A stretch of 64,000 bases of DNA from Candidatus Omnitrophota bacterium (GTDB taxonomy: Bacteria; Omnitrophota; Omnitrophia; Omnitrophales; Aquincolibacteriaceae): NCBI GenBank assembly GCA_903884815.1, contig CAISGE010000002.1:45955-109954 (forward strand), written 5' to 3'. The notes under the pieces were generated by a model. It was not told where the DNA came from, searched no databases, and saw nothing but the letters and a program-made list of their open reading frames with translations. The stretch's first letter is position 1, and every line of letters begins with the position of its first letter. Below, in pieces: positions 6,621-21,785 of this stretch. Both the position numbers and the translations under genes were made by a program.

Positions 6621-6626
6621 CGCCTC

Positions 6627-6764: not shown

Positions 6765-6843
6765 CGCTGTGTCGACATTGATTTTACGGTTCACCGCGCT
6801 ACCTCGTGGCCCCGTAAAAATCAAACAGACACGGTGGTAAGCG

Positions 6844-7221: not shown

Positions 7222-7427
7222 AGCACTTTTTGATCCTTATGATTCATGCTTATCGCGCGCTCATCGCTCCCCTTCTCGGTCCTTGTTGCCGTTTTACTCC
7301 CAGTTGCTCCGCGTACGCGGAAGAATCTCTTCGAAAGAACGGAGCGTGGTCCGGCGGCAAGCGGGCGCTCCAAAGATTTTGTAAATGCCACCCCTTTCAC
7401 CCCGGCGGGTTTGATCCCGTTCTATAA
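7218..7427 (+). CDS. yidD: Membrane protein insertion efficiency factor YidD.
   Basis: The motif HAYRALIAPLLGPCCRFTPSCSAYAEESLRKNGAWSGG is the YidD signature (C-R-F-x-P-S-C-S-x-Y). The likely start is the GTG at 7218, which overlaps the rnpA stop (GTGA). The track ORF 7122-7427 starts too early. Confidence 0.8.
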   Translation: MKHFLILMIHAYRALIAPLLGPCCRFTPSCSAYAEESLRKNGAWSGGKRALQRFCKCHPFHPGGFDPVL

Positions 7428-7437
7428 AGGAAACAAA

Positions 7438-9084
7438 ATGGATAAAAATACCGTAAAAGCGATTGTTCTCGCCATGGCTGTCATGCTGTTTTACCCGATG
7501 GTGGTTAAAAAGTTTTATCCTGCAGCGTATCAGAGAACACCGGGCGCCACGACAGCAACGCAGCTCGCCCCCGCAGCGCTTCCCACAAGAGTGCCGCCCA
7601 CGGCCATTTCTGAGGTGACGGGAGGAACGAACCTGGAAAAAGCGGCGGCCCCCGCCGTGACGCTTCTGAAGAATAACTTTTATCAAGCCGAATTTTCCAC
7701 GCTCGGCGGAACCCTCACAAGCCTTTCCTTTCTCGGCGAAGCCGGGAGACAGAATTTTACAAAAACAGATTTTTTTGTGGGTGATCCGCGCGAGTCCGGC
7801 ATTTTCGGGGTGAGTGTTCTTCGCGAAAGAGCGGATCTTTCGGAAACGATATTCAAGATGGCCCGGAAAGGAGCGCGAGGAGAGACCCTGGAGTTTTCTT
7901 ACGAACTGCCTGGCGAATATCAGTTTATCAAGACGTTTACGGTGCGCGAAGATAAGCCCGTGATCGATCTCACCGTCAGGATCAAGAACCTTTCCCCCAT
8001 TACAAAGCATTTCCCCGTGACCCTGAACTACGGCATAAGTTATACCGAAGGCTATCAAAGAAGTTATGGTTACTATGACGCGGCAGCCTATACGGACAAG
8101 GTCCAGACGAAGGGCCTAAGAGATATTAAGAAGAAGGGGTATTTCTTCCCCGAGCAAACCGTGTGGGCGGGATTTATAAAAAAATATTTCGCGCTGCTTA
8201 TCAAGCCGGACGCAAAGATCATCGAGGGAAGCGCTCGCGCGGACACAAAGGATCTTTTTGGAGAAATGACCCTGGAGCCGTTGACGGTTCTGGCGGGCGG
8301 CGAAGGCGAAAGAAGCTTTTTGATCTATGCCGGAACGCAGCGCTACGAAGCGCTTAAAAGCTTTGGCGTTGGATTCGAGGAGGTTTTCTCCAGGGGTTTC
8401 TTCGGGCTCTTCAAGACATGGATCCTTATGGCGCTTAAATTTCTGAACCAATACACGCACAACTTTGGCTGGGCGCTTGTGATCCTCACCTTCTTGATCA
8501 AGCTGGTGTTCGCGCCGCTGACGCACCTTAGTTACTCGAACATGAAGAAAATGCAACTCCTCTCGCCGAAAATGAAGGCGATCCAGGAGCATAACAAAAA
8601 AGATCCCGCGAAATCCCAGCACGAGCTCATGATGCTCTACCGGCGGAATAAAGTGAATCCGATGATGGGTTGTCTTCCCATGCTGATACAGATCCCCGTT
8701 TTTATCGCGATGTTCAAGCTTCTTCCCGAAGCGATCGAGCTTCACGGCGCGCCCTTCATTTTTTGGATCAAAGATCTTTCTTCGCCGGATCATTTCATGA
8801 CGCTCCCCTTCACCGTTCCCCTGCTCGGGTGGACCGCGCTGAACATCCTGCCGCTCACCATGGCGGCTTCTCAGGTCTGGTATCAAAAACTCATGCCGGC
8901 GCAGCCGGGGTCGAGCCCGGAGCAGCAGACCATGATGAGCATCATGCCGGTCTTTTTTGGCTTCATGTGCTACAACATGCCTTCGGGCCTGACGCTTTAT
9001 TGGACGCTGCAGAATATGTTCTCGATCATCCAGCAGGTTTTCATCAACAGGATCGCGATCATTCTGCATCACGAAGATCAATAA
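7438..9084 (+). CDS. yidC: Membrane protein insertase YidC.
   Basis: An ATG at 7438 follows an aaggaaac RBS (MDKNTVKAIVLAMAVMLFYP...). The conserved YidC/Oxa1 core is present (WALVILTFLIKLVFAPLTHLSYSNMKKMQLLSPKMKAIQEHNKKDPAKSQHELMMLYRRNKVNPMMGCLPMLIQIPVFIAMF). The track ORF 7246-9084 starts too far upstream. Confidence 0.9.
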   Translation: MDKNTVKAIVLAMAVMLFYPMVVKKFYPAAYQRTPGATTATQLAPAALPTRVPPTAISEVTGGTNLEKAAAPAVTLLKNNFYQAEFSTLGGTLTSLSFLGEAGRQNFTKTDFFVGDPRESGIFGVSVLRERADLSETIFKMARKGARGETLEFSYELPGEYQFIKTFTVREDKPVIDLTVRIKNLSPITKHFPVTLNYGISYTEGYQRSYGYYDAAAYTDKVQTKGLRDIKKKGYFFPEQTVWAGFIKKYFALLIKPDAKIIEGSARADTKDLFGEMTLEPLTVLAGGEGERSFLIYAGTQRYEALKSFGVGFEEVFSRGFFGLFKTWILMALKFLNQYTHNFGWALVILTFLIKLVFAPLTHLSYSNMKKMQLLSPKMKAIQEHNKKDPAKSQHELMMLYRRNKVNPMMGCLPMLIQIPVFIAMFKLLPEAIELHGAPFIFWIKDLSSPDHFMTLPFTVPLLGWTALNILPLTMAASQVWYQKLMPAQPGSSPEQQTMMSIMPVFFGFMCYNMPSGLTLYWTLQNMFSIIQQVFINRIAIILHHEDQ

Positions 9085-9095
9085 AATCGCACAAC

Positions 9096-9150
9096 GCGCA
9101 ACGCTCAACGGACAACGAATCGTTGCGCTTTGCGCGCTGCGCGCTGAGCG
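9096..9150 (+). terminator. Cluster of GC-rich hairpins between yidC and mnmG. It is a likely terminator or attenuator and has no clear U-tract.
   Basis: The sequence cgcaacgctcaacggacaacgaatcgttgcgctttgcgcgctgcgcgctgagcgttgaacg contains the palindromes caacgaatcgttg and cgcgctgcgcgc, and caacgctca pairs with tgagcgttg. Confidence 0.35.
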
Positions 9151-9160
9151 TTGAACGAAT

Positions 9161-10981
9161 ATGAATCCCATCCAAAGATACGCTGCCATCATTGTCGGAG
9201 CCGGCCACGCCGGCGTCGAAGCTTCCCTTGCCATCGCCCGAGCGGGTTTTCCCGTGCTGGTGATCACCATGGACACGAACGCCATCGCGCGCATGTCGTG
9301 CAATCCCGCGATCGGCGGGCTCGCAAAGGGCCACATGGTCCGTGAGATCGACGCGCTCGGCGGCGAAATGGGTCTCGCGACGGATGCCACCGGCATTCAA
9401 TTCCGCATGCTCAATAAATCCAAGGGCCCCGCCGTTTGGGCGCCGCGCGCGCAAGCCGACAAAAAACAGTATGAGCTTTATATGAAGCGCGTGCTCGAGG
9501 CTGAAAAAAACATAACGCTCTTACAGGGACAGGTCGTGGAACTTCTTGTGAAAGATGGCGTTTGCTATGGCGTACGAACGAAGAGCGGCGAAACATTTTT
9601 TGGTGAGTACGTGATTCTGACCACGGGAACCTTTTTACAGGGACTGATCCATGTCGGCGAAGAAAATTATCCGGGAGGACGCCGGGGTGAGGCGCCCGCG
9701 GTCGGGCTTTCGGATTCTCTGCGCGCTCACGGGATCGATCTGGTGCGGTTCAAGACGGGAACGCCGCCGCGACTTCATAAGGACAGCATTCGTTGGGACA
9801 TTCTGGAGGAGCAGAAAGGCGATGAACCGCCGCTCCCCTTTTCTTATCGAACAAAGGATTTTAAGGTCGAGCAGCTTTCCTGTTTCATGACCCACACGAA
9901 CGAAAAGGCCCACGCGATCATTCGCAAAAATTTGGATCGCTCCCCGCTTTATGCCGGAAGGATCGCCGGCATCGGACCGCGCTATTGCCCCTCGGTGGAA
10001 GACAAGGTCGTGAAATTTCCCGATAAAAAATCCCATCAGATTTATCTTGAGCCAGAGGGACGCGACACTGACGAAATATACATGAACGGATTTTCAACGT
10101 CCCTTCCGAAGGATGTCCAGGAAGTCGCGCTTCGCGAGATCCGGGGTCTTGAAAAGGCGGAAATTCTGAAATTCGGATACGCAATCGAATACGATGCCGC
10201 TCCCCCGATGCAGCTCAAGCATTCTCTGGAAACCAAAAAAATAAAAAATCTTTTTTTTGCCGGACAGATCAATTGCACCTCCGGCTATGAAGAGGCCGCG
10301 GCGCAAGGGCTTATGGCGGGATTCAATGTGATACGGAAATTGTGCGGCCAGAGTGAATTCGCGCTCGACCGGACGGAGGCCTATATCGCCGTGCTGATCG
10401 ATGACCTTGTGACCTGCGGGACGAACGAACCCTATCGAATGTTTACTTCACGCGCAGAATTCCGTCTGTTGCTTCGCCAGGATAACGCCGACGAACGGCT
10501 CATGCTTTACGGATTTCAGTTCGGGCTGATCGGCGAAAAAACATTCGAAGAGTTCAATCAACGATTGGACCGGATGCGGGCCGATGTGAAAGAACTAAAA
10601 GCAAAGCGCTTTAAAAACGATACTCTTTATCAGTATTTAAAGCGGCCCGAGATAAGATATAAAGAATTGCTGTTAAATGATTTGCACTCATCTATTCTTA
10701 AGGACGATGAGATCCATCGCGTCGAAAGCGAGATTAAGTATGAAGGCTATATCGCCCAACAAAAGACCGAGGTAAAAAAATTCTTGAAACTCGAGAAGAA
10801 AAAAATACCGGAAGATCTAGACTACGAAAAAATGCCAGGCATTGGGCGAGAAGCTAAAGAGAAGCTAAAAAAGATTCGTCCTGAATCAATAGGCCATGCG
10901 GCCAGAATTTCCGGGATTTCCACATGCGACCTATCTATCCTGGCGGTTTTCATAGAAAAGACGGCGAAAGAAAAAAGATAA
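9161..10981 (+). CDS. mnmG: tRNA uridine-5-carboxymethylaminomethyl modification enzyme MnmG (GidA).
   Basis: The 606 aa protein has an FAD-binding N-terminus (IVGAGHAGVEASLAIARAG) and a GidA core (MSCNPAIGGLAKGHMVREIDALGGEMG, FAGQINCTSGYEEAAAQGLMAG). Confidence 0.95.
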   Translation: MNPIQRYAAIIVGAGHAGVEASLAIARAGFPVLVITMDTNAIARMSCNPAIGGLAKGHMVREIDALGGEMGLATDATGIQFRMLNKSKGPAVWAPRAQADKKQYELYMKRVLEAEKNITLLQGQVVELLVKDGVCYGVRTKSGETFFGEYVILTTGTFLQGLIHVGEENYPGGRRGEAPAVGLSDSLRAHGIDLVRFKTGTPPRLHKDSIRWDILEEQKGDEPPLPFSYRTKDFKVEQLSCFMTHTNEKAHAIIRKNLDRSPLYAGRIAGIGPRYCPSVEDKVVKFPDKKSHQIYLEPEGRDTDEIYMNGFSTSLPKDVQEVALREIRGLEKAEILKFGYAIEYDAAPPMQLKHSLETKKIKNLFFAGQINCTSGYEEAAAQGLMAGFNVIRKLCGQSEFALDRTEAYIAVLIDDLVTCGTNEPYRMFTSRAEFRLLLRQDNADERLMLYGFQFGLIGEKTFEEFNQRLDRMRADVKELKAKRFKNDTLYQYLKRPEIRYKELLLNDLHSSILKDDEIHRVESEIKYEGYIAQQKTEVKKFLKLEKKKIPEDLDYEKMPGIGREAKEKLKKIRPESIGHAARISGISTCDLSILAVFIEKTAKEKR

Positions 10982-11232
10982 GACGAAGAGAGTCCTTCGA
11001 AAAAAGAAATACCTGCACCAAGGGGCCCCAACGAAAATCCCCCGAGCGATCGCGCGCCACGCATCCTTATAGTCTCCTATAAAGCAACGCCGCAAGCCGT
11101 GTGTTCGCATATGACAAGGTCTATTAGTCTTCGATAGCGCACAGATATTGCCCATCTAAACACAATACAAACTTGACCGTGATGTGATTTTTATTATTGA
11201 TAATCTGGAATTCGCCTCATGATAAAATTAAA

Positions 11233-11248
11233 CGTTTCACGTGAAACA
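11233..11248. promoter_or_regulatory. parS: parS centromere site (cGTTTCACGTGAAACa).
   Basis: The 14 bp perfect palindrome GTTTCACGTGAAAC matches the ParB-binding parS consensus tGTTTCACGTGAAACa. Confidence 0.8.
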
Positions 11249-11374
11249 TGCCAAACGTCAAAAAAGCAGACAAAGGAGTTCTTGCGTAATAGCGCGCGAT
11301 CGCCAGCTCTCGCCATTGGAAAAAGAGAAGGTTTTCGGAAATAAAGTTCTCGATTAAACGAGCGTAAATTTTTA

Positions 11375-11402
11375 TTGCAAGCCTCTGGAATCTGTGTAAA
11401 AT
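11375..11402 (+). promoter_or_regulatory. Sigma70-like promoter for parAB (TTGCAA-N16-TAAAAT).
   Basis: The -35 TTGCAA (11375-11380) and -10 TAAAAT (11397-11402) are separated by a 16 nt spacer, about 90 nt upstream of the parA start. This is a sequence match only. Confidence 0.35.
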
Positions 11403-11465
11403 ACGGCACGGGTAGAAACACAGCCCTTTTGCATTGAGCGCACAATTGTTCGTGTTGCCACGCAT

Positions 11466-11481
11466 TGTTTCACGTGAAACA
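11466..11481. promoter_or_regulatory. parS: parS centromere site, a perfect 16-mer TGTTTCACGTGAAACA, lying between the putative promoter and the parA start.
   Basis: It matches the parS consensus exactly and lies 13 nt upstream of the parA RBS and start. Confidence 0.85.
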
Positions 11482-11493
11482 TATGGAGGCTCT

Positions 11494-12465
11494 ATGGGGA
11501 AAATATTCTCTTTCTTTAATCAAAAAGGTGGTGTTGGAAAAACAACGTCTGTCGTGAACATAGCCGCCGTTATAGCCGCTTTTGGAAAGAAGGTTCTTCT
11601 TATAGATCTAGATTCGCAAGGTAATGCAACAAGCGGACTTGGAATAGAGAAAAACGAGAATGAATCCACAGCTTATCAACTTCTTGTGGAAAACTCTGAT
11701 CCAAACGAAAGCATCAAAAAAACAGAGATTGAAAACCTTTCTATCGTCCCATCGAATGCCCATCTTTCCGGAGCGGAAATGCATTTGATAAGCCGCGATC
11801 AGAGGGAGTTCGTTCTTCGAGAGCAATTAAAAAAGATAAGCGGGAGCTATGATTTTATCCTCTTGGACTGCCCGCCATCGCTTGGACTGACAAGCATAAA
11901 TGCTTTAACATCAAGCGATTACATTATTATTCCTCTCCAGTGCGAGTATTACGCCTTGGAGGGTCTTGGCCAACTCCTGAATACATTTCAGCTTGTCAAA
12001 AAAAATCTTAGCGTGAATCTTGAGCTCGGGGGCGTGATTCTGACGATGGCGGATATCAGGACCAATCTGACGCAGCAGGTGATCGAGGAAGTCCGGAACT
12101 ATTTCAAAGAAAAAGTATTTCAGGCAGTTATTCCGAGGTCTGTGAAGCTTTCTGAGGCGCCAAGCTTTGGAAAGCCAGCCGTGATTTATGACCCTCATAA
12201 TAGAGGCTCGCAGGCTTATGTCGAGCTTGGGAAAGAATTTTTGGTGCGCTTTGGCTCCGACGAAGATCGTCAAAAGATCTCCGAGAAAGGGGCGGAAGCC
12301 TTTACAGTCAAATCTGTTACGCCCGAATCCAACGAAACGAAATCAGAAGAAACAAAAACGGTTACAAGCGAGACTACCGTTGAAACGGTAACTTCCGACA
12401 ACGGGACCGAGGCGGAGCCCCAAGCTGCAAGTGAAACCTCGTCTACCACACCCACAAATTCTTAA
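11494..12465 (+). CDS. parA: Chromosome partitioning ATPase ParA/Soj, with an unusual Ser/Thr/Glu-rich C-terminal tail of about 70 aa.
   Basis: An ATG at 11494 follows a ggagg RBS. The protein begins MGKIFSFFNQKGGVGKTT (deviant Walker A) and shows the ParA core to about residue 255. The tail reads SDEDRQKISEKGAEAFTVKSVTPESNETKSEETKTVTSETTVETVTSDNGTEAEPQAASETSSTTPTNS. The track ORF start at 11434 is upstream of the parS site and is unlikely to be real. Confidence 0.9.
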   Translation: MGKIFSFFNQKGGVGKTTSVVNIAAVIAAFGKKVLLIDLDSQGNATSGLGIEKNENESTAYQLLVENSDPNESIKKTEIENLSIVPSNAHLSGAEMHLISRDQREFVLREQLKKISGSYDFILLDCPPSLGLTSINALTSSDYIIIPLQCEYYALEGLGQLLNTFQLVKKNLSVNLELGGVILTMADIRTNLTQQVIEEVRNYFKEKVFQAVIPRSVKLSEAPSFGKPAVIYDPHNRGSQAYVELGKEFLVRFGSDEDRQKISEKGAEAFTVKSVTPESNETKSEETKTVTSETTVETVTSDNGTEAEPQAASETSSTTPTNS

Positions 12466-12500
12466 ACGCGAAACGTTCTATATAAGGAAGGAGCCTTCTC

Positions 12501-13448
12501 ATGAAAAAAGCACTCGGCAGGGGATTGAGCGCGTTGATCCCGGACAGTTACAAAGAGCAGATGGTCGCGGAGAGAAAAGAAGCTCCGGCCGCCACCGTGA
12601 CGCTTAACGCGGAGCCGGAGGTTTCCATCACGGCGCCGGTCTTTGACGCGAAAACGCAGGCTTTTCAGCTGATACCGATCGCGCAGATCGCAACGAACGC
12701 GGATCAGCCGCGCAAAAATTTCAATACCGAAACTATCGAGGAGCTCGCGAATTCGATCCGAGAGAAGGGCGTGCTCCAGCCGATCATCGTTAAAAAGAAA
12801 GAAAGCGGAGGATACGAGATCGTCTGTGGGGAGAGGCGATTTCGCGCAGCATCGCTCTGCGGTCTCACCGAAGTACCCGCGATCATTAAGGATATTGCCG
12901 CTGAAGATTTTCTGGAATGGGCGCTCATCGAAAATATTCAGCGGGAAGATCTGAATCCGATCGAAGAAGCCGAGGCTTATCAGCGGCTCGTGGAAGAGCG
13001 CAGGATCTCTCAAGAGGAGGTCGCGAAGCGCGTCGGCAAGAACCGCGTCACAGTGACAAATACCATGCGACTGCTGCGCCTGCCGCAGGAAGTGAAGCAG
13101 TCTTTGGTCGAGGGAAATCTCTCGGCGGGGCACGCCCGGGCGCTCCTGGGTCTTCTGACGCCGGAGCACCAGCGGCATATGGCGAAACGGATTGCCGAGG
13201 AGAATCTCTCGGTGCGCCAGGTCGAAGCCATTGTGAACCGGAGCAACGCGCATAAACGGAAAGCCAAGACCGCGCGGCATTTAAGCGCCGACATCGTGGA
13301 CCTTGAAACGAGGCTCACGCATTTTCTCGGGACGCAGGCGAAAATTTATCCGCGCAAGAATCAAAAAGAAGGCCGCATCGAGATCCAGTATTTTTCTCTC
13401 GACGATCTCGATCGCGTACTCCAGAAGATCGGTTTGCCGCGAGGCTGA
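12501..13448 (+). CDS. parB: Chromosome partitioning protein ParB/Spo0J.
   Basis: The protein starts MKKALGRGLSALIP (the ParB N-terminal box), carries the GERRFRAA box (CGERRFRAASLCGL), an HTH (QEEVAKRVGKNRVTVTNTMRLLRLP) and a C-terminal dimerisation region. Confidence 0.9.
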   Translation: MKKALGRGLSALIPDSYKEQMVAERKEAPAATVTLNAEPEVSITAPVFDAKTQAFQLIPIAQIATNADQPRKNFNTETIEELANSIREKGVLQPIIVKKKESGGYEIVCGERRFRAASLCGLTEVPAIIKDIAAEDFLEWALIENIQREDLNPIEEAEAYQRLVEERRISQEEVAKRVGKNRVTVTNTMRLLRLPQEVKQSLVEGNLSAGHARALLGLLTPEHQRHMAKRIAEENLSVRQVEAIVNRSNAHKRKAKTARHLSADIVDLETRLTHFLGTQAKIYPRKNQKEGRIEIQYFSLDDLDRVLQKIGLPRG

Positions 13449-13493
13449 CGCTCGAATCCGTCTGAAAGAAAAAACGTTACGAAAGAGCCGCGT

Positions 13494-14897
13494 ATGAACC
13501 CGCAGCGCGAATACCGATTCTTGGAGCAGACGCTCAGCCTGTGCCCGCAGTGTTTGATGCGCGTGGATGCGAAGATCGTTCTCAAGAAAAACTCTGTTTA
13601 TCTCTTGAAATTCTGTCCCGTCCATGGCCCCCAGGAGGAGATCCTGGAAAAAGACGGCGATTACTATCTGCAACGAATGAAATACGACAAGCCCGCCACG
13701 GTTTCCAAAACACAAACGGAGCGAACGCTCGGCTGTCCTTTTGACTGTGGGTTATGCCCCGAGCACGAACAACACACCTGTAACGGACTTATCGAAATTA
13801 CAAGCGAGTGTGATCTGAAGTGCCCGGTCTGCTATGCGGAGAGCGGCCAGGGGAGGCACCTTGCCCTGGAAAAGATCGATTCCATGCTGGATTTTTTTGT
13901 TGACTCCGAATTTGGCGGGGCCGAAATCCTTCAGATCAGCGGTGGGGAACCGACAAGACATCCCGATATTCTCGAGATCCTCCGACGGGCGAAGGAGAAG
14001 AAGATCAAATATGTGCTGCTCAACACGAACGGCCTTCGCATGGCGGAAGATGAGGCTTTTGTCAAAGAGCTGAGCCGGTTCATCGGCGGGTTCGAAGTCT
14101 ATTTCCAGTTCGATGGGTTTGATCCCAAAACCGATCAACGACTCAGGGGCAGAAAGGTTTCCGAACTTAAGCAGGCAGCGATTCAGCGCCTCGAGCAATA
14201 CGGGATCCCCGTCACGCTGGTGACGACGGTGGATGCGGGCGTGAACGACCATGAGATCGGGCGGATCCTCGAATATGGCATCCGGGCAAAAAATATACGA
14301 GGCATCAATTTTCAGCCGGTCGCCTTTTTCGGACGCCACCACGAGGCGGTCACAGAAGGGCGCGCCACTCTCTCCGGGATCCTCGAAGAGATCGAGAAGC
14401 AAAGCAAGGGGATGCTTCTTAAAAAAGATTTTTTTCCGTTGCCCTGCGATGTCGACCGCGTTGCGATCACCTATCTCTACAAGACAAAAAAAGGTTTCGT
14501 TCCACTGACGCGAAATTTTAAAGCCGAAAAACACCTGCCCATGATCCGGAACACGTTTCGCTTCGATCCAGACGATTTTTTAAAGGATCTGGCCAAAAAC
14601 ATTTTCTCCACAAGCTGTTGTGATTATCTGGGATTTTTTTCCAAACTTCGGAAACTTATCCCCCAAAATTATTTTCTAAAAACAGAGCAGGAAAAAGTCG
14701 CCTACGTGAGCGAAAACACTTTCAGGGTCAGCGTCACTTCGTTTCTCGACGCCTATAATTTCGACATGAAGTCGATGAAGAAAGAATGCGTGCACATCAT
14801 CACTCCGGACCTGAAAAAGATCCCGTTCTCGGCGTATAACATTCTCTATCGTAACCGCAAAACTGAAGCCGAGACGGTTCCGGAGAAAAAACAATGA
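13494..14897 (+). CDS. Radical SAM enzyme (467 aa) with an N-terminal Cys4 ribbon and an extra CX3CX2C cluster. It may belong to the Tes/GDGT-MAS-like lipid C-C synthase family.
   Basis: The radical-SAM signature is CDLKCPVCY (CX3CX2C) followed by the GGEP glycine motif (ISGGEPTRHPDI). A second CX3CX2C (CPFDCGLCPEHEQHTC) lies upstream of it. An N-terminal Cys ribbon CPQC...(17)...CPVHG resembles rubredoxin. There is no SPASM or twitch tail. The family-level call is an inference. Confidence 0.8.
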   Translation: MNPQREYRFLEQTLSLCPQCLMRVDAKIVLKKNSVYLLKFCPVHGPQEEILEKDGDYYLQRMKYDKPATVSKTQTERTLGCPFDCGLCPEHEQHTCNGLIEITSECDLKCPVCYAESGQGRHLALEKIDSMLDFFVDSEFGGAEILQISGGEPTRHPDILEILRRAKEKKIKYVLLNTNGLRMAEDEAFVKELSRFIGGFEVYFQFDGFDPKTDQRLRGRKVSELKQAAIQRLEQYGIPVTLVTTVDAGVNDHEIGRILEYGIRAKNIRGINFQPVAFFGRHHEAVTEGRATLSGILEEIEKQSKGMLLKKDFFPLPCDVDRVAITYLYKTKKGFVPLTRNFKAEKHLPMIRNTFRFDPDDFLKDLAKNIFSTSCCDYLGFFSKLRKLIPQNYFLKTEQEKVAYVSENTFRVSVTSFLDAYNFDMKSMKKECVHIITPDLKKIPFSAYNILYRNRKTEAETVPEKKQ

Positions 14898-15502
14898 CGC
14901 TGCTCGAGGTTTTTTATGCGGGGATCAGCCTTCTCGTGGCGCTTTCCGTTTTTGCCGTTCTTACGGCTGTTCTTATCGATTTCATAGAAATCCATAAAAA
15001 AAGCCAGACCAAAAAAGAAAAAAAGAGCATCGTCGCCACGGGAACCATGCTTCTTTTTTTCCTGCTCTTTTATGCGGTGATCCGGCTTCGTCTGGGGCAG
15101 GTGCCGGTGAATCCGCCGTCCTTAAGGATGTGTTTTGTTTTGGCGGGGCTGGCCCTTGTCATTACAGGGGCGATCACGAATATTCTGGGGCGTTTGGCCC
15201 TGGGGAGAAATTGGGCGAACCATATCAAGATCTACAGCGACCACGCTCTGGTGTCGGGAGGCGCGTACAAAATCGTCAGGCATCCTCTTTACGCGTCGCT
15301 CATCTGGATGTTCTTGGGGGCCAGCCTGGTCTATCTTAACTATCTGGCGTTTTTGGCGAACGCAATTATTTTTGTTCCGTTTATGTATTACCGGGCCAAA
15401 CAGGAGGAAGATCTTCTGTCCAAAGAATTCGAAGAATATAAGGATTATCAAAAAAATGTCGGAATGTTTTTCCCCAAAATATTCAGGAGGACGAAAACGT
15501 GA
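14894..15502 (+). CDS. Integral membrane methyltransferase of the ICMT/PEMT family.
   Basis: The 202 aa protein has several transmembrane segments and the family motifs LVSGGAYKIVRHPLYASLIWMFLG plus a C-terminal EEDLLSKEFEEYKDYQKNV region. Its start overlaps the radical-SAM stop (ATGA). Confidence 0.6.
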   Translation: MTLLEVFYAGISLLVALSVFAVLTAVLIDFIEIHKKSQTKKEKKSIVATGTMLLFFLLFYAVIRLRLGQVPVNPPSLRMCFVLAGLALVITGAITNILGRLALGRNWANHIKIYSDHALVSGGAYKIVRHPLYASLIWMFLGASLVYLNYLAFLANAIIFVPFMYYRAKQEEDLLSKEFEEYKDYQKNVGMFFPKIFRRTKT

Positions 15503-15945
15503 TCCCTTCCAAGCCTGTGTCTGTGCTCAAGCACGCGTTTATTTTTTGCCGCTATGGCGTCGCGGTGTTGATCTGGGCCGCGTTTTTTATGAAGCTTAAA
15601 TGGCTGATGGCAGCCGTCTTTGCGATTTTGTTTCTTTCCGCGCTTCTGAAGGTTGGGAGAGCTCCGATGATCCTTCTTTACTCCCACACGATTAACAAGA
15701 TTTTTCGTTCGGAACACTATGAGGTGCTCAACGAAAACGCCATGAGGTTCGCGCACGTCCTTGGGAGCGCTCTGAGCCTGGCCTGTGTTCTGACGCTTTA
15801 TTTTTTTAACGAAAGGACGGGCTGGGTGATGGTATTCTTTTTTGCGATCCTGAAAACGATCTCTGCGCTTGGATTTTGTCCGGCTTCCAAGCTTTTTGAT
15901 TGCGCCACAAGCGGTTCTTGCTGCTCGTTCCTTAAAAAATCATGA
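15499..15945 (+). CDS. Small polytopic membrane protein with a C-terminal Cys-rich motif. It may be DUF4395-like.
   Basis: The 148 aa protein has four predicted transmembrane segments. Its C-terminus reads GFCPASKLFDCATSGSCCSFLKK. It is translationally coupled to its upstream and downstream neighbours. Confidence 0.45.
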   Translation: MIPSKPVSVLKHAFIFCRYGVAVLIWAAFFMKLKWLMAAVFAILFLSALLKVGRAPMILLYSHTINKIFRSEHYEVLNENAMRFAHVLGSALSLACVLTLYFFNERTGWVMVFFFAILKTISALGFCPASKLFDCATSGSCCSFLKKS

Positions 15946-16712
15946 CCGATCCGCATGTTTATCCGGCAGGCTGGGGGATTAAGCCGGTCTTGTTTCATCT
16001 GGGAGCCGTGGAGGTCCCATCGTACTCTTTTTTTGTGCTGCTGGGGCTTGTGGCCGGGCTCACAGTGTATTTCCGTGAAGCCAAGCAGCAGAAGGACTTG
16101 GGGGAGCGCTCCTTTTTCATTATCGCGGGCTCTTTGATCGGCGGGATGCTTGGCGCCAAGGGTTTGGAGTGGGCGATCAACTATCCTGAGATTCTGGATC
16201 GCGGGTTGGCTGCCGACTTTCTTTTGAACGGAAAGACGATCATCGGCGGATTGATCGGAGGGATGCTCGGCGCGAACATCACCAAAAAGTTGCTGGGGAT
16301 CAAAACGAAGAAGGGGAATTTGATCGCCCCGGGCATCGCCTTGGGCGTCGCGGTCGGGAGGCTCGGGTGTTTTCTCCACGGCTGTTGTTACGGAAAGCCG
16401 ACCTCTTTGCCCTGGGGCGTGGATTTTGGGGATCATGTTCTCCGGCATCCGACGCAACTTTACGAGGGCCTTTTCATGCTCGGGATGTTTTTCTACCTGG
16501 AGAGGATCAAAGTCCGGCCGGGGCTGAAACCCGGAGAACTTTTTAAGATCCTGATGATCGCTTATTTCATTTTTCGATTTCTGATCGAATTTATCCGGGT
16601 CGAGAAAGCGGCCTTTTGGGGGCTGACCGTTTTCCAGGTTATCGCCCTGGGCGTCCTGGCTTATTTGTTGAAAGATAACCTCAGGAGGACAGAAACTCAT
16701 GGCGGAAAATAA
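15942..16712 (+). CDS. lgt: Prolipoprotein diacylglyceryl transferase (Lgt family), a Cys-rich variant.
   Basis: Motifs include the Lgt signature RHPTQLYE and GVAVGRLGCFLHGCCYGKPTSLPWGVDFGD, which corresponds to E. coli GAGRLGNFINGELWGR. The topology fits Lgt. Its start overlaps the upstream stop (ATGA). Confidence 0.75.
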   Translation: MTDPHVYPAGWGIKPVLFHLGAVEVPSYSFFVLLGLVAGLTVYFREAKQQKDLGERSFFIIAGSLIGGMLGAKGLEWAINYPEILDRGLAADFLLNGKTIIGGLIGGMLGANITKKLLGIKTKKGNLIAPGIALGVAVGRLGCFLHGCCYGKPTSLPWGVDFGDHVLRHPTQLYEGLFMLGMFFYLERIKVRPGLKPGELFKILMIAYFIFRFLIEFIRVEKAAFWGLTVFQVIALGVLAYLLKDNLRRTETHGGK

Positions 16713-17013
16713 TGAGATCAAAAAAGAAAACGAGGGAAGTTTTCTCGGGGGATTCTTTATAGGATTTTCGATCGTGTGTGGCTGCGGTATTTTGTACTTT
16801 TTCCCCAGCATGTGGCCGACCCATCATTTCTCCAAGATGTTTTTTTTATCAGCCGCTGAGCTCAGCGCGCTGGCAGGGCTCGTGGCATATGCTACGGGAA
16901 GAAAAAAGTTAGCACGCGGCATGGCGGTTGGCTTTGCAGGCGGCATTATAGTCTTTCCCCTTACCATTCCTTTTATTCTTCTGGGGGGATGCCTCTTGGC
17001 GGGGAGCCGTTGA
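16699..17013 (+). CDS. Small two-TM membrane protein, paralog 1 of 3.
   Basis: The C-terminal half (GRKKLARGMAVGFAGGIIVFPLTIPFILLGGCLLAG) is shared with the next two ORFs. Confidence 0.5.
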   Translation: MAENNEIKKENEGSFLGGFFIGFSIVCGCGILYFFPSMWPTHHFSKMFFLSAAELSALAGLVAYATGRKKLARGMAVGFAGGIIVFPLTIPFILLGGCLLAGSR

Positions 17014-17083
17014 GTTCAGGTGCGGGGAACCCCGGGAGCTTCGGCATATTTACGGCAAGACAAACTTCGGCGGGAAAAGGCGT

Positions 17084-17365
17084 ATGCAGAAAATGAAGGA
17101 TCACAAAACAGAAGGCGCGGAGGCCTTCATAATCGCTTTGGGTGCGGCATTCCTTGTGGAAAGTTTTCTCGGGGTTTTCGGGATGATGGCGGTTGTCAAA
17201 ATGACCGCACCCATGAGGGTTTACATGCTTTTCGGCGTGCCCGCTTTGACAGCGGCACTCTTTTTTTGGAAAGGGAGAAAAAAAGTAGCCATGGGGATCT
17301 TGGTTGGCGCCTTAGCGCCCTTCATTGTTTTCGGAGGTTGCTTGTTGGCGTTCGTAGTCGGTTGA
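17084..17365 (+). CDS. Small two-TM membrane protein, paralog 2 of 3.
   Basis: It carries the shared C-terminal motif FFWKGRKKVAMGILVGALAPFIVFGGCLLAFVVG. Confidence 0.5.
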   Translation: MQKMKDHKTEGAEAFIIALGAAFLVESFLGVFGMMAVVKMTAPMRVYMLFGVPALTAALFFWKGRKKVAMGILVGALAPFIVFGGCLLAFVVG

Positions 17366-17482
17366 AAGGGTTTATTGGATGATAGACCGCGACGGGGCCC
17401 AGCATTTCACGCAGGAGGTAGATCAGGACTAAAACTCGCTACGTCATTTATTCAGGAGAAACTCAAAAGAGGAACGACTTAA

Positions 17483-17776
17483 ATGGAAGACGACAAAAAG
17501 CCCCTCGCGGTAAGAATCGCGATTTTTATTGGTGGGTGGGCAGTGGGTTTTGCGCTGGCGTGCGTCTGCATCTTTTCGGGACTGGGTCTTATCATTAATG
17601 CAACCCCCCGCGCCGATCTCTATGGCGCCATTAAACTACTCTCTGCTTCCGTGGGGTTTGCAGGGCTCGTGGGTTGGGCTTTTTGGAAAGGGCAAAAAAT
17701 ACTGGCGCTTGGAGTGATCCTTGGGGCTATAGCACCCTTTCTTGCTTTGGGAGCATGCTCCATGGCGATTCGTTGA
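17483..17776 (+). CDS. Small two-TM membrane protein, paralog 3 of 3.
   Basis: It carries the shared C-terminal motif AFWKGQKILALGVILGAIAPFLALGACSMAIR. A GC hairpin (gggccggcgaaggccc, 17777-17792) follows its stop. Confidence 0.5.
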   Translation: MEDDKKPLAVRIAIFIGGWAVGFALACVCIFSGLGLIINATPRADLYGAIKLLSASVGFAGLVGWAFWKGQKILALGVILGAIAPFLALGACSMAIR

Positions 17777-17991
17777 GGGCCGGCGAAGGCCCCACCCGCG
17801 CCCGGCTCGCGAGCCGAGCACGCATAAGGGCGCGAACAGAGAACCGCTTCAAGAGAAAAGGGCCTTTACAGAAGTCCCGGGCGCTATGCTATAATTCGCG
17901 GCCTATAGCGATGCTTTTTTAGCGCGCCATCATAAAAAGAAGTTGTTCCTCGCGGAGCCGGTCAACGCCTTTCAAACGAAGGGAATTCCGT

Positions 17992-19287
17992 ATGTCGAAA
18001 AGTTTTTGGGCGAAGGGTTTTTCCATTCTTTTAACAATCTTTGTTTTGGCCGGCTGCGGTTCACCGGTTGAAACGGGAGCGAAGGGCGTCACGGAAGTGA
18101 AGGTCAGTTTTTGGGGGACGCCCGAAGAGATTGGCATTATTACCGAAGCCCTCGCGCCATGGCAGACCGCACATCCCGAGATCAAGATCGTTTTCGAGCA
18201 TACGCCTTATACCGGCTACATCAGCAAAGTCCTGACCCGCATCGCGGGAGGCGCGGCCCCCGATATTATCGCCACGGAAGTCGATTATTTCGTGACGTTC
18301 GCGACAAAAGGAGTTTTGGAGGATCTGAACCCATATGTGATCTCGGATCCGGCGGGCTTCGACAAAGCGGATTTCTTCCCGCAAATCGTTGACAGGTTCA
18401 CATATCAGGGAAAATTCCTCGCGGCGCCGCGGGATATCGCGCCGTTTGCCTGCGTCTTCTATAATAAAAAAGTTTTTGATCAGGCGAATCTCCCTTACCC
18501 GACCGATGACTGGAATTGGAGCGACATGTTGCGTCTCGCGCGCGAGCTGACCAAAAAAGACGCTTCCGGTCGCGTGGAGCAATACGGATTTTATACCTGG
18601 GCATGGCAGAACTTTCTTTATGGCAATGGCGGCGGCCTCGTGGATAACGTGCAGAACCCCACAAAGACGATGATGGATGATGACCGCTCCATCATGGGCC
18701 TCCAGTTTTATTCGGATCTGAGCAATCTTTATGAGTCGATGCCGACTCCGACTGCGTTCACGAATTTCGGGATGGGCGCGGACCGGATGTTCGCTAACGG
18801 TCGCATCGCCATGTTCCTCTCGGGGATCTGGGAAACGCCACAGTTCCGCAATTACGATTTTGAATGGGACGTCGTGATGTTTCCTAAGAATGATAAAGGC
18901 GTTCGGGCCTTCGGGACGGGGGGGACCGGATACGCGATACTGAAATCTTCCAAGCATAAGAAAGCGGCGTGGGAAGTGATCAAGGCTCTCACCGGGCCTG
19001 AAGGACAAAGGGAGTTCGCCCGCAGGGGTCTTGCCCAACCCGCGCGCATGTCCGTGGCAAAAAGCGACGCGTTTGCGGATGACAAGTCCGTGCCCCGGAA
19101 CAAGAAAATGTTGAATGAAGCGGTTCAGTATGCCGTGTTTAGCCCCTTCCATCCCAAGTGGCGCGAGATCGAAGAAAAATATATCCGCCCCCAGCTCGAC
19201 CTCGTTTTTAACGGGAAGAAAAGCGCCGCGGAGGTCGCCAAAGAATTGGCCCCCGAGGTGAACGCCCAGCTGAAGCGAGACGAATAA
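17992..19287 (+). CDS. ABC transporter sugar-binding lipoprotein (family 1 extracellular solute-binding protein).
   Basis: A signal peptide with lipobox LAGC|GS precedes a roughly 400 aa periplasmic binding-protein fold with a typical sugar-SBP composition (WGTPEEIG..., FYNKKVFDQANLPYPTDDWNWSDM). No permease genes are adjacent. Confidence 0.7.
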   Translation: MSKSFWAKGFSILLTIFVLAGCGSPVETGAKGVTEVKVSFWGTPEEIGIITEALAPWQTAHPEIKIVFEHTPYTGYISKVLTRIAGGAAPDIIATEVDYFVTFATKGVLEDLNPYVISDPAGFDKADFFPQIVDRFTYQGKFLAAPRDIAPFACVFYNKKVFDQANLPYPTDDWNWSDMLRLARELTKKDASGRVEQYGFYTWAWQNFLYGNGGGLVDNVQNPTKTMMDDDRSIMGLQFYSDLSNLYESMPTPTAFTNFGMGADRMFANGRIAMFLSGIWETPQFRNYDFEWDVVMFPKNDKGVRAFGTGGTGYAILKSSKHKKAAWEVIKALTGPEGQREFARRGLAQPARMSVAKSDAFADDKSVPRNKKMLNEAVQYAVFSPFHPKWREIEEKYIRPQLDLVFNGKKSAAEVAKELAPEVNAQLKRDE

Positions 19288-19328
19288 ACGATCTCTTTTT
19301 TAAAATTATACAAGGAGCTCCCGCACCC

Positions 19329-21785
19329 ATGCCGAGAAAATCAAAGACCCGAAAAAAAGCCGAAGCCAAAATGTTGCAGCAGGAAGATCATTCCGGGAAA
19401 AAGTTCGCCTCAAAATACGGTTACTTCACGCCGGACGGCCGCGAATACGTGATCACCCGCCCGGACACCCCGCGCCCGTGGGTGAACGTAATTTCGAACG
19501 GGGACTACGGCACGATCGAATCGCAGGCAGGTTCCGGATTCTCTTGGCGTGACAATTCCAATCTTTCGCGCGTGACGCGTTGGGATCAGGATCTTATCCG
19601 AGATAACTGGGGCAAATATATTTATGTGCGTGACCGAGACAATGGGGACTATTGGTCGGGGACCTGGAAGCCGTGCATGCCGAAATACGATTTTTTTGAA
19701 GTGCGCCATGGGCAGGGCTACTCGGTTCTGACCAGCAAGCTGAACGGAATTCGTCTCGAGAAAACCATCTTTGTGGATGTCGAAGATCCTGTCGAGGTCT
19801 GGAAGATCGTGCTCACAAACCAATCCGGGAAAAAACGCCGGATGAGCCTCTTTACTTATTTTGACTGGTGTCTCGGTAATTGGTCGGACACACACCGTGA
19901 ATTCCACAAAACTTTTATCGAAACCTGGATCGACAAAAAATTCGGTTGCATTCACGGTGTCAAGCGCGCGCCGCTCGTGCCGGGCTTTATCTCGACAGGC
20001 ATGACGGAAAAACCGCTACAGGGTTTTCACGCAGCCTATCCCAAGCCGGTAGCGTACGACGGAGACAAGGAATCTTTTCTCGGACGCTACGGCGAGATCC
20101 ACGCGCCGGCGGCAGTGGTGGAGGGAAAATGCCGCGGGTCGGAAGGAAAGTGGGGCGATGCCTCCGCGAGCCTTCAAGTCGATGTGGACCTGGAAGCCAA
20201 GGAATCGAAAACCGTGATCTTTACACTCGGCTCCACGCGCACGCGCGAAGAGGCTGAACGCATCATTCAGAAATATGCGAATCCCCGGACTGCAGACCAG
20301 GAGCTTAACAAGGTCAAGGCGCTCTGGGATTCGTTTGTCCACGCTTCCGAGGTTGAGACGCCGGACGAGGCGCTTAATTTCATGACGAATATCTGGATGA
20401 AATATCAGGCTATTTCCGCCCGAATCTGGGCAAAATGCGCGTATTACCAGTCAAGCGGCGGGTACGGCTTCCGCGACCAGTTGCAGGACTGCCAGATCTT
20501 TTTTGCGACGCGTCCGGAGCTCGCGAGAAAGCAGATCCTCCTTCACGCCGAACAGCAGTTTCCCGACGGGACGGTGTACCACTGGTGGCATCACGGCACG
20601 AATATCGGAGCGATCACGCATTGCTCCGACGACCTGCTGTGGCTGGACTTTATCACGTTGAATTATCTGGACGAAACGGCGGATGACGCGATCCTGGACA
20701 CGGTGGTGAAATTCCTCCCTGATCCGAAGACCAAAGAGATCACTTCCGGAACGCTTTATGATCATTTGCTCCGGGCGATCGACAAGGCATTCACGCGGTT
20801 TTCGCCGCGCGGGTTGCCTTTGATCGGCGAATGCGACTGGAACGACGGGCTTAGTCACGTCGGGACAAAGTGGAAAGGCGAATCAATCTGGCTCGGACAT
20901 TTCCTCTACGGGATCCTGAACCGCATCGCGCCGATCATGGAAACGCGCGGGGACAAGGCAAAGGCGGCCGAGTATCTCCGCCGCGCGGAATCGCTGAAAA
21001 GGTCGCTCAACAAGGAGGGCTGGGACGGGGAGTGGTATCTTGGGGCAACGCGCGATGACGGGCGGCCGCTCGGCAGCAAACAATGCGAGACCGGAAAGAT
21101 ATTCCTGAATTGCCAGACGTGGGCCGTGATCACCGGTGTTGCTGACGCGAAGCGCGCTCGGGTTGCGATGGATTCTGCCGCAAAATGGCTTTACAAAAAA
21201 TATGGGCCACTGCTTTTGACGCCGGGGTATAACCAGACCGACGCCACGATCGGCTACATCACGCGTTACGCGCCCTCGGTCCGCGAGAACGGCGGGCTTT
21301 ACACGCATGCTGGCACCTGGGCGGTTCAGGCCGAAGCGATGATGCGTGACGGAGAAAAAGCACATCAGGTTTATGATAGCTTCAATCCCGCGACGCGGGG
21401 TCTTGAGCCGGATATTTATTACAGCGAGCCTTACGTGACTCCGGGGAATGTGGACGGGCCAGATTCGCCCAACAACGGACGCGGAGGCTGGACTTGGTAC
21501 ACGGGTTCTGCCGCGTGGTATGCCGTGGTTGCGATGAATTGGATGCTAGGGATACGCCCGGTTGCCAAAGGACTTGCCGTCGATCCCGTGATCCCGAAGA
21601 AGTGGCCGGGTTTCAAAATGAAGCGGCTTTTCCGCGGCAGCACGTATTTGATCGAGGTCAAAAATCCCGCTCAGACAGGGCAAGGTGTCCAGTCGCTCCT
21701 GGTTGACGGGAAAAAGCAGAAAGAAAATCTCATTCCGGATTTTCGGGATGGGCGGACGCACCGGGTCGAAGTCACGCTCGGGTAA
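19329..21785 (+). CDS. GH94 glycoside phosphorylase (cellobiose, cellodextrin or beta-1,2-oligoglucan phosphorylase family).
   Basis: The N-terminus is YGYFTPDGREYVITRPDTPRPWVNVISNGDYGTIESQAGSGFSWRDNSNLSRVTRWDQD, and the protein spans about 800 aa, the typical GH94 length. The true start is probably the ATG near 19371 (MLQQEDHS...). Confidence 0.75.
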   Translation: MPRKSKTRKKAEAKMLQQEDHSGKKFASKYGYFTPDGREYVITRPDTPRPWVNVISNGDYGTIESQAGSGFSWRDNSNLSRVTRWDQDLIRDNWGKYIYVRDRDNGDYWSGTWKPCMPKYDFFEVRHGQGYSVLTSKLNGIRLEKTIFVDVEDPVEVWKIVLTNQSGKKRRMSLFTYFDWCLGNWSDTHREFHKTFIETWIDKKFGCIHGVKRAPLVPGFISTGMTEKPLQGFHAAYPKPVAYDGDKESFLGRYGEIHAPAAVVEGKCRGSEGKWGDASASLQVDVDLEAKESKTVIFTLGSTRTREEAERIIQKYANPRTADQELNKVKALWDSFVHASEVETPDEALNFMTNIWMKYQAISARIWAKCAYYQSSGGYGFRDQLQDCQIFFATRPELARKQILLHAEQQFPDGTVYHWWHHGTNIGAITHCSDDLLWLDFITLNYLDETADDAILDTVVKFLPDPKTKEITSGTLYDHLLRAIDKAFTRFSPRGLPLIGECDWNDGLSHVGTKWKGESIWLGHFLYGILNRIAPIMETRGDKAKAAEYLRRAESLKRSLNKEGWDGEWYLGATRDDGRPLGSKQCETGKIFLNCQTWAVITGVADAKRARVAMDSAAKWLYKKYGPLLLTPGYNQTDATIGYITRYAPSVRENGGLYTHAGTWAVQAEAMMRDGEKAHQVYDSFNPATRGLEPDIYYSEPYVTPGNVDGPDSPNNGRGGWTWYTGSAAWYAVVAMNWMLGIRPVAKGLAVDPVIPKKWPGFKMKRLFRGSTYLIEVKNPAQTGQGVQSLLVDGKKQKENLIPDFRDGRTHRVEVTLG

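Follow-up and report, generated by a model that had tools for sequence, protein, structure and literature searches.

Lgt, the prolipoprotein diacylglyceryl transferase, is treated as a single-function housekeeping enzyme and as a drug target. In the crystal-structure paper on the E. coli enzyme, R143, E202, Y235 and R239 line the pocket for the glycerol of phosphatidylglycerol (PG), and E243 and R246 belong to an adjoining conserved hydrogen-bond network. The lipobox peptide is proposed to dock at His103 of the HGGL motif, the substitutions H103A, H103N, H103Q, H103R and H103Y all failing complementation, and the active site opens at the outer leaflet. Lipid tails are the target of certain radical S-adenosylmethionine (SAM) enzymes. 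The glycerol dialkyl glycerol tetraether (GDGT) enzyme GDGT-MAS/Tes of M. jannaschii (MJ0619; PDB 7TOL and 7TOM) has the metal sites C9X2C12X20C33X2H36 and C73/C77/C80 plus His and forms a substrate C–S bond with a cluster sulfide. For making GDGT from free archaeal lipids, Tes suffices by itself (Zeng 2022), and bacterial Tes homologues, which have been noted bioinformatically only, are proposed as synthases of branched GDGTs (brGDGTs). Here we describe a gene cassette that puts members of these two enzyme families side by side. It was found in a 64,000-nucleotide (nt) stretch of Candidatus Omnitrophota DNA (contig CAISGE010000002.1), called the window below, to which all nt coordinates refer. 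The conserved core of the cassette is a radical SAM gene paired with a gene for an Lgt paralogue, together with genes for mini-proteins that have a Cys in their tail.

Two further described systems are close. Mss (Thermotoga; Sahonero-Canavesi 2022) is, like the presumed cassette enzyme, a bacterial radical SAM enzyme coupling lipid tails, but the literature treats it as an enzyme separate from Tes, and no Lgt-like partner is reported for it in the literature searched. The nearest concept is that of the DAG-RiPPs (Chen et al., bioRxiv 10.1101/2025.10.31.685832), small cluster-encoded ribosomal peptides lipidated on a lipobox Cys. These precursors of RiPPs (peptides that are synthesized ribosomally and modified post-translationally) carry ordinary N-terminal lipoprotein signals, take the housekeeping Lgt/LspA/Lnt route and involve MNIO enzymes, with no Lgt paralogue or radical SAM enzyme, whereas the lipobox-like motif of the cassette lies at the C-terminal end of a polytopic mini-protein. 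Lgt goes unmentioned in a 2026 review of radical SAM enzymes that modify lipids. Literature combining Lgt, lipobox, radical SAM and tetraether, in a search of incomplete coverage, yielded no description of the cassette and no paper pairing Lgt with a radical SAM enzyme, in line with what an earlier reading of the window (the original prediction) had said of this partnership. Widespread and apparently unstudied, the cassette seems to combine two kinds of chemistry, Lgt-type Cys lipidation and Tes-type tail modification, and may point to an unrecognised route by which lipid is attached to proteins or remodelled on them.

The window carries the cassette as a seven-gene operon, with the evidence for each assignment in brackets:

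13494–14897, + strand: radical SAM enzyme assigned to the Tes/GDGT-MAS family, 467 amino acids (aa) (Pfam, NCBIfam, PDB match, AlphaFold2 (AF2) fold)
14894–15502, + strand: integral-membrane methyltransferase of the ICMT/PEMT family, 202 aa (Pfam, RHPLY motif)
15499–15945, + strand: DUF4395 four-helix membrane protein, 148 aa, GTG start (Pfam)
15942–16712, + strand: divergent Lgt-family paralogue, 256 aa (Pfam LGT, fold, alignments to E. coli Lgt)
16699–17013, + strand: mini-protein 1, 104 aa, about three transmembrane segments, candidate acceptor for the Lgt-like protein (open reading frame (ORF) with upstream AGGAGG)
17084–17365, + strand: mini-protein 2, 93 aa, or 90 aa from an alternative start at 17093
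17483–17776, + strand: mini-protein 3, 97 aa

The coordinates of the first four ORFs, and the 4-nt overlap at each of their three junctions, are as first described, except that the junction at 15499 reads GTGA and not ATGA. The third gene initiates at GTG, as judged from an AGGAGG 8 nt upstream and from the conserved N-terminus of its homologues (M..KPVS/TV). Stoichiometric expression, which had been read into the overlaps, cannot be deduced from them alone. Nor does the operon end at 16712 as supposed, because the three mini-protein genes follow; the ORF of mini-protein 1 shares 14 nt with the end of the Lgt-like gene and has an AGGAGG upstream. All seven ORFs are called as genes on 27–38 independent contigs in public assemblies, with mini-protein 1 called on 38.

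The radical SAM enzyme and its Lgt-family partner

Relatives of the radical SAM protein number in the thousands; the 120 closest are 56–88% identical and are drawn from Patescibacteria, Chlorobi, Ignavibacteria and other groups. The order radical SAM–ICMT–DUF4395–LGT–small ORF recurs in a Chlorobaculum metagenome-assembled genome, a Falkowbacteria contig, an Ignavibacteriales contig and further metagenome contigs. The four-ORF arrangement is more than chance, since the same gene order is found in unrelated phyla.

We scanned genomes with the radical SAM protein as seed, taking one genome per species, which gave 80 loci, and counted as evaluable the 63 with at least 3 kb on both sides. A same-strand Lgt-like gene is present in 62 of these 63 loci and lies within 1.3 kb in 58. 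The reverse scan, of metagenomes, was seeded with an alignment of Lgt-like proteins; 55 of its loci have an adjacent Tes-like gene and two do not (55/57 evaluable), and a further 23 contigs were too short. Beyond the pair, no gene family is common to more than 14 loci. The pair is therefore very strongly conserved, and the synteny that the original prediction had proposed to check holds across phyla, both as gene order and as the pair. What the analysis shows is the family to which each part belongs and this conserved genetic linkage.

The loci fall into two clades. Members of clade A are at least 48% identical to the radical SAM protein of the window and have its gene order, radical SAM–ICMT–DUF4395–LGT. 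Clade B proteins are about 40% identical to it and have the order LGT–radical SAM; ICMT and DUF4395 are absent from the clade B genome loci. Clade B is hosted by Hymenobacter, Pedobacter, Flavobacterium, Chitinophaga, Paenibacillus, several Bacillaceae, Nostocales and some Proteobacteria. Rarer orders in the metagenome scan, such as radical SAM–LGT alone or LGT–radical SAM–ICMT–DUF4395, keep the pair. Across both clades the hosts include Omnitrophota (the window), Patescibacteria, Chlorobi, Ignavibacteria, Bacteroidota, Bacilli, Clostridia, Actinobacteria, Nostocales and Proteobacteria.

Four archaeal-binned contigs (L006, L008, L010 and L072 in our numbering of loci, from an unclassified archaeon, Woesearchaeota, Methanosarcinales and Methanobacteriota) also carry a cassette of bacterial type, with an Lgt-family gene in three of them (L008, L010 and L072). 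Archaea are reported to lack Lgt homologues, and these cassettes could reflect horizontal transfer or mis-binning.

The original prediction had likened the architecture of the radical SAM protein to that of Tes/GDGT-MAS, and this resemblance is borne out. The protein has the Pfam domains Radical_SAM and Zn_ribbon_HMPTM and matches PDB 7TOL (GDGT-MAS) with E=1.4e-71 and 245 bits, so that its closest match is not to a non-lipid radical SAM family. In a Foldseek search, its AF2 model (predicted local distance difference test (pLDDT) score 81.8) aligns with 7TOM/7TOL over the full length of the four-domain fold at a TM-score of 0.81 and 30% identity, whereas the runners-up match the radical SAM core only, at 0.39. 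Judged from the modelled fold, the protein belongs to the Tes/GDGT-MAS lineage, of which it is a predicted full-length structural homologue.

The metal-binding motifs bear out the same kinship. The N-terminal rubredoxin-type ribbon, which had been described as Cys4, is Cys3His (C17-X2-C20-X20-C41-X2-H44), identical in spacing to that of GDGT-MAS; it is invariant in our alignment (A1) and conserved in both clades. The extra CX3CX2C motif and the radical SAM CX3CX2C with its GGEP sequence had been read correctly. The N-terminal auxiliary motif is C81/C85/C88, invariant with H91 and H94, and matches C73/C77/C80 plus His of GDGT-MAS; the radical SAM motif, which the two enzymes have in common, is C106/C110/C113 (nt 13809–13832), invariant and accompanied by SGGEPT. 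The C-terminal cluster differs. GDGT-MAS Cys438 and its labile Met439 are replaced in the cassette family, aligning with Val-Thr in the window protein, and the family has invariant residues of its own, namely an extra C96, C318, a CC dipeptide (C375/C376 in the window), C432 and H434. Two further differences are that Tes works alone and the cassette enzyme is nearly always beside an Lgt-family gene, and that the cassette hosts are bacteria with ester lipids.

By score, the closest named family is TrsS, the top-scoring one for every cassette radical SAM protein tested (317–359 bits). The window protein reaches 354.3 bits with the NCBIfam TrsS model (NF045646, cut-off 490) and 307.5 bits with the Tes model (NF045702, cut-off 450), with which other cassette proteins score 267–325 bits. 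None of the cassette radical SAM proteins tested attains the TrsS or the Tes cut-off, and the window gene, as a further difference from TrsS, has no in-frame TGA. TrsS is listed as a (seleno)protein, and the cassette radical SAM proteins keep the CC dipeptide in their C-terminal domain (residues 375–376 and the clade B equivalents).

The partner protein matches Pfam LGT (PF01790) with 9.8e-36 and 123.7 bits, and its AF2 model (pLDDT 80.3) has as its sole significant PDB match the E. coli Lgt structure 5AZB, at a TM-score of 0.67. Its score with the Lgt equivalog TIGR00544 is 81.1 bits, below the cut-off of 118.9, so that the concern raised in the original prediction, that it might be an ordinary Lgt, finds no support there; clade B proteins score lower still, at 36–56 bits. 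Equivalents of E. coli R143, G154, E202, Y235, R239, E243 and R246 are retained in the window protein and kept in every aligned cassette member, with D for E243 and K for R246 as swaps in clade B. The His103 position, however, is Ile in the window and Ile, Val, Ala or Met in all aligned members. Cassette proteins also have a conserved (K/R)(T/S)(I/V)xGGL where E. coli-type proteins have (L/M)SFHGGL, and an invariant FGD motif precedes RHPxQLYE. The loss of His103, the altered GGL motif and the FGD motif are real distinguishing changes that set the cassette proteins apart.

The Cys-rich loop singled out in the original prediction is present but is not specific to the cassette. It comprises residues 139–151 (GRLGCFLHGCCYG; nt 16356–16394), in which N146, N149 and E151 of the Lgt signature G-R-L-G-N-F-x-N-G-E become C, H and C, and GRxGC, with the Cys146 equivalent, is invariant among cassette Lgt-like proteins. 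We considered this loop (N146 to Cys, and GCC) as the hallmark of a new class and rejected it, because an Lgt encoded next to lspA, and other Lgts scoring above the equivalog cut-off, have the same signature. At locus L152:3517-4727, a metagenome contig with the order ileS-dksA-lspA-lgt-rluD, the Lgt next to lspA carries GRIGCFLNGCCYG. This protein and the Lgts of L162 and L164 pass TIGR00544 at 141–147 bits with GRIGCFxxGCCYG and have His or Tyr at position 103. The Cys-rich loop hence does not decide Lgt membership, and, as housekeeping Lgts carry it, it can go together with genuine diacylglyceryl-transferase activity. An entire lineage of ordinary Lgts uses Cys at the E. coli N146 and E151 positions. 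The Cohnella locus L049 has a second Lgt-family gene (692–1492, − strand) 6.5 kb from its cassette; the encoded protein carries the Cys146 variant as well (GRIACFLNGDAYG), a further count against the loop as a hallmark, with Gln at the His103 position, which makes it yet another Lgt variant in a single genome.

We read the cassette protein, from these alignments, as a paralogue derived from the Cys-type Lgt lineage, its donor pocket apparently kept and its acceptor site apparently altered. It resembles E. coli Lgt (5AZB; TIGR00544) in its seven-helix fold and in catalytic and PG-binding residues, and probably also in topology, with positive loops predicted in matching places. The periplasmic head insertion is short in the cassette proteins and likewise in lspA-linked Lgts. 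Differences from Lgt are the linkage of the paralogue to a radical SAM gene instead of lspA, the replacement of His103 and the presence of FGD.

Mini-proteins and clade-specific accessories

The mini-proteins with their lipobox-like Cys are the best clue to the substrate of the cassette. Searches of Pfam and NCBIfam placed them in no family, even at E values up to 5, although mini-proteins 2 and 3 are paralogues of one another (phmmer 1e-7). Mini-protein 1 ends ...GRKKLARG-MAVGFAGGIIVFPLTIPFILLGG-C-LLAGSR, with LLGG before C98 (nt 16990–16992); mini-protein 2 ends ...KGRKKVA-MGILVGALAPFIVFGG-C-LLAFVVG, with VFGG before C86 (nt 17339–17341); and mini-protein 3 ends ...KGQKILA-LGVILGAIAPFLALGA-C-SMAIR, with ALGA before C92 (nt 17756–17758). 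Other clade A loci encode one to four proteins of 80–140 aa with the same ending at the equivalent position, and in clade B one to four proteins of 55–120 aa with this ending follow the radical SAM gene (for example ...LIGFGSC-AAMF..., ...FLVNAAC-FGLL... and ...IIGGGAC-IMLL...).

Candidates were collected with a filter for small ORFs having a Cys 2–25 residues from the end, 18 preceding hydrophobic residues and K/R upstream. An ORF passing this filter lies just downstream in 60 of 83 genome loci, often in two to four tandem copies, whereas only 2% of the remaining small ORFs of these loci pass it. Up to the Cys, the consensus reads (L/I)(I/L)-G-(F/L)-(G/S/A)-(A/T/S/I)-C. Among the 90 candidates the median length of the uncharged stretch ahead of the Cys is 17 residues, and the ten residues before that stretch have a mean net charge of +2.1; the tail after the Cys (3–22 residues) is uncharged in 74%, and the Cys is the sole one in the protein for about half.

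We compared the candidates with the published lipobox core pattern (G+LPPv2) stripped of its N-terminal anchor. The strict core is matched by 34 of the 90, including all three window mini-proteins, compared with 0.9% of background ORFs, and the core with T, I or V allowed at −1 by 62 of the 90, compared with 1.6%; the filter and this test share features, which inflates the match rate of the candidates, so that the informative figure is the contrast with background. The layout of a bacterial lipoprotein (signal peptidase II, SPII) signal is thus present, with a basic n-region, an uncharged h-region of 7–22 residues and a lipobox [LVI][ASTVI][GAS]C. What differs is its placement, as the motif is not N-terminal but closes the last helix of a mini-protein with two or three transmembrane segments. 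With the basic loop inside, the positive-inside rule would put the Cys in the outer leaflet.

The same C-terminal module ends larger proteins of 170–330 aa (L072:9485-10003, L125:2858-3766, L112:7120-7833, L112:7840-8565 and L145:7240-8241), two of which have an N-terminal EF-hand calcium-binding motif. Many Bacteroidota mini-proteins of clade B end in N-x-H (for example L025:9392-9592, L028, L048 and L073), and 19 of 72 clade B candidates terminate in His, which suggests that selection acts on the short tail behind the Cys as such. The mini-protein was rejected as a universal component, because several soil clade B loci have none nearby.

Clade A loci have two more genes. Gene 2 matches Pfam ICMT with 3e-13 (50.4 bits, cut-off 24) and PEMT with 4e-10, as expected from the original prediction of an ICMT/PEMT-type protein with an RHPLY motif, and scores 75.7 bits with the isoprenylcysteine methyltransferase equivalog NF040696 (cut-off 160). 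Its position and its RHPxY...E motifs are conserved in 14 loci. By sequence it belongs to the ICMT/PEMT family, a match that does not in itself identify a substrate. Gene 3, predicted only as a small Cys-rich membrane protein, proves to be a DUF4395 protein (Pfam 1.8e-11, with a weak match to YgaP-like_TM, E 0.015), and five of its Cys (FCR, GxCxA, C, CC) are conserved across clade A in an alignment of 13 loci. Positive-inside reasoning puts its Cys-rich tail probably on the cytoplasmic side. In the literature searched, DUF4395 came up just twice, each time incidentally. Both genes are clade-specific accessories outside the conserved core.

Proposed lipid chemistry and its alternatives

We tentatively propose, as a plausible reading that stops short of an even chance, that a dedicated Lgt paralogue lipidates the mini-proteins and that the Tes-like enzyme remodels lipid tails. 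The general idea of the original prediction thereby holds. Topology rules suggest that the mini-proteins would insert with their basic loop inward, bringing the Cys into the outer leaflet. There the Lgt paralogue would move a diacylglyceryl or related group from a glycerophospholipid to the mini-protein Cys to give a thioether; homology and the conserved pocket residues point to this transfer, with the PG-glycerol pocket seemingly kept and the peptide-binding HGGL region seemingly remodelled. The Tes-like enzyme, by homology with GDGT-MAS, would perform radical chemistry at the ends of hydrocarbon tails from the cytoplasmic face, either on the donor lipid before transfer or on the protein-bound lipid after it. 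This might be C–C coupling, leading to a macrocyclic or membrane-spanning anchor, or a C–S step via the conserved CC pair. In clade A only, the ICMT-type enzyme would add a methylation and the Cys-rich DUF4395 protein may provide an accessory function at the cytoplasmic face. The substrate, the order of the steps and the product are what we infer here from the parts. A more specific form of the proposal, which we regard as rather unlikely, is that the paralogue glycerolipidates the C-terminal Cys and the Tes relative then joins the protein-bound tail ends, with one another or with a lipid from the opposite leaflet. The result would be a covalent anchor, macrocyclic or membrane-spanning, and thus a protein–lipid conjugate of a new kind, made by a protein-lipidation system so far unrecognised across many bacterial phyla.

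Such a scheme recalls CaaX processing in eukaryotes and archaea, in which a Cys a few residues from the C-terminus likewise meets a thioether-forming lipid transferase and, as in this operon, an ICMT-family methyltransferase. The cassette differs in that its lipid transferase would be of Lgt type and not a prenyltransferase, and that no tail-removing protease is seen. In addition, the ICMT gene is absent from clade B, the window ICMT protein is below its equivalog cut-off (75.7 bits against 160), and the mini-protein Cys is predicted on the face opposite the SAM-using site.

Several points count against mini-protein lipidation by the paralogue. The radical SAM and ICMT sites are expected to be cytoplasmic and the Lgt-type site and mini-protein Cys to face outward, and with sites on opposite faces no single atom can be the target of all the steps. 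The paralogue has lost the His103 that E. coli Lgt cannot do without, so that it may not be a transferase. The window contains one Lgt-family ORF, and a second canonical lgt is not among its ORFs. The lipobox match rate is inflated by the overlap of filter and test noted above, and the mini-proteins often have T or I at position −1, residues atypical of a classical lipobox there. Finally, in a subset of soil clade B loci no mini-protein gene can be recognised nearby, so that the mini-protein may be dispensable or its gene may lie elsewhere.

In a different scheme, the Tes-like and Lgt-like proteins act on membrane glycerolipids only and the mini-proteins are structural or regulatory subunits. 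The Lgt-like subunit would extract or present PG, or cleave its head group, for tail-to-tail coupling, the product would be membrane-spanning or macrocyclic lipids, and the mini-protein Cys would serve some other purpose, for instance a metal or disulfide contact with the signature Cys of the Lgt-like protein. We hold this to be doubtful. It would account for the retention of the PG pocket residues alongside the loss of the peptide-site His103, for the loci that lack mini-proteins and for the invariant Cys146 equivalent, which could pair with the mini-protein Cys; it also agrees with the proposal of bacterial Tes homologues as brGDGT synthases and with the synthesis of GDGT from free lipids by Tes alone (Zeng 2022). 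That same self-sufficiency tells against it, as archaeal Tes needs no Lgt-like partner. Ordinary Lgts, moreover, also have Cys at position 146, and the mini-protein motif is lipobox-like in sequence, helix length and charge layout. Many of the carriers, among them Flavobacterium, Pedobacter, relatives of Bacillus and Nostocales, are to our knowledge not makers of membrane-spanning lipids. A further alternative, that this is an ordinary housekeeping lgt merely sharing an operon with a lipid-tail radical SAM gene, could appeal to the public annotation of these proteins as prolipoprotein diacylglyceryl transferases, to the Cys-rich signature of genuine Lgts and to the single Lgt-family ORF in the window. 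It is nonetheless highly improbable, given scores below the equivalog cut-off of 118.9 (81 bits in the window, 36–56 in clade B), the loss of His103 throughout, the second Lgt-family gene of Cohnella L049 at 6.5 kb and the radical SAM linkage in 62 of 63 loci. Furthermore, clade B occurs in cultured Bacteroidota and Bacilli, which need a canonical lgt, and its divergent proteins cannot be that gene.

Two other schemes keep the mini-protein as the substrate. The tandem, multi-copy paralogues, variable in sequence around a single conserved modification motif, could be precursors in an RiPP-like lipopeptide factory, their N-terminal two-thirds serving as a membrane-bound leader. Once the Cys is lipidated, housekeeping SPII would cut in front of it, releasing a very short diacylglyceryl-Cys peptide of 3–22 residues whose lipid the Tes-like enzyme would remodel and which ICMT would methylate in clade A. 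The SPII-signal-like architecture, the conserved tail ends (N-x-H in Bacteroidota), which suggest that the tail matters, and the precedent of the DAG-RiPPs as RiPP–lipoprotein hybrids all favour such a route, which we nevertheless think unlikely: no protease or exporter is conserved among the loci compared, the tails are short, mostly hydrophobic and poorly conserved, and the occurrence of the same module at the end of 170–330 aa proteins is more what one expects of a membrane anchor than of a leader. The DAG-RiPPs known so far, in addition, use the housekeeping Lgt and an N-terminal signal. Very unlikely, in our view, is radical thioether lipidation, whereby the Tes-like enzyme itself would bond a lipid tail, through its terminal carbon, to the mini-protein Cys or, as an intermediate, to its own CC pair, in analogy to the carbon–sulfur intermediate of GDGT-MAS, and the Lgt-like protein would be a lipid-binding scaffold. 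GDGT-MAS does form a substrate C–S bond with a cluster sulfide, its Cys438/Met439 are replaced in a family with its own invariant C318, CC pair, C432 and H434, and TrsS, the closest named family, is listed as a (seleno)protein. Yet the mini-protein Cys is predicted in the outer leaflet, beyond the reach of a cytoplasmic radical SAM enzyme, and the catalytic Arg pair and acidic network kept in the Lgt-like protein are not needed by a passive scaffold.

If the dedicated Lgt paralogue does lipidate the mini-proteins, a widespread relative of Lgt with a remodelled acceptor site and putative substrates of its own would extend lipidation past the N-terminal lipoprotein pathway. There is a consequence for lipid biomarkers as well. 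Bacterial Tes homologues are currently counted as brGDGT markers without functional proof; since the large cassette subfamily goes with an Lgt paralogue and with Cys mini-proteins, its function is probably a different one, and screens based on homology only may mis-assign lipid producers. Because the module is present in cultivable and tractable Pedobacter, Flavobacterium, Chitinophaga, Paenibacillus, Fictibacillus and Nostocales, the hypothesis is directly testable. Patescibacteria and DPANN archaea are thought to scavenge lipids, and the module in Patescibacteria and in DPANN-binned contigs hints at lipid remodelling there.

Genomic surroundings

The boundaries of the operon are not clear from a promoter and terminator scan of 13200–18100, which gave weak consensus matches only, and an Rfam search of the window matched no RNA family. 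We also considered a known defence system and rejected it, as PADLOC gave only generic radical SAM (viperin-core) similarity. An antisense ORF of 337 aa (15798–16811, − strand) runs across the DUF4395 and Lgt-like genes and most likely just reflects the codon bias of the coding strand.

Downstream of the cassette, 17992–21785 encodes a sugar ABC-transporter binding protein and a GH94 cellobiose phosphorylase. Their adjacency to the cassette is not kept in other loci, and they appear unrelated to it. The GH94 protein falls into one 90% cluster with proteins of Candidatus Omnitrophota metagenome-assembled genomes, which makes this phylum the most likely source of the window. Directly upstream (window 1–13448) lie yidC, mnmG/gidA, parA and parB, and the GC skew changes sign at about 4–8 kb of the window; a chromosomal replication origin is probably close to the cassette. 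The ParA homologue (11434–12465) has a long C-terminal extension rich in Thr, Ser and Glu (...TKSEETKTVTSETTVETVTSDNGTEAEPQAASETSSTTPTNS), which is unusual for ParA.

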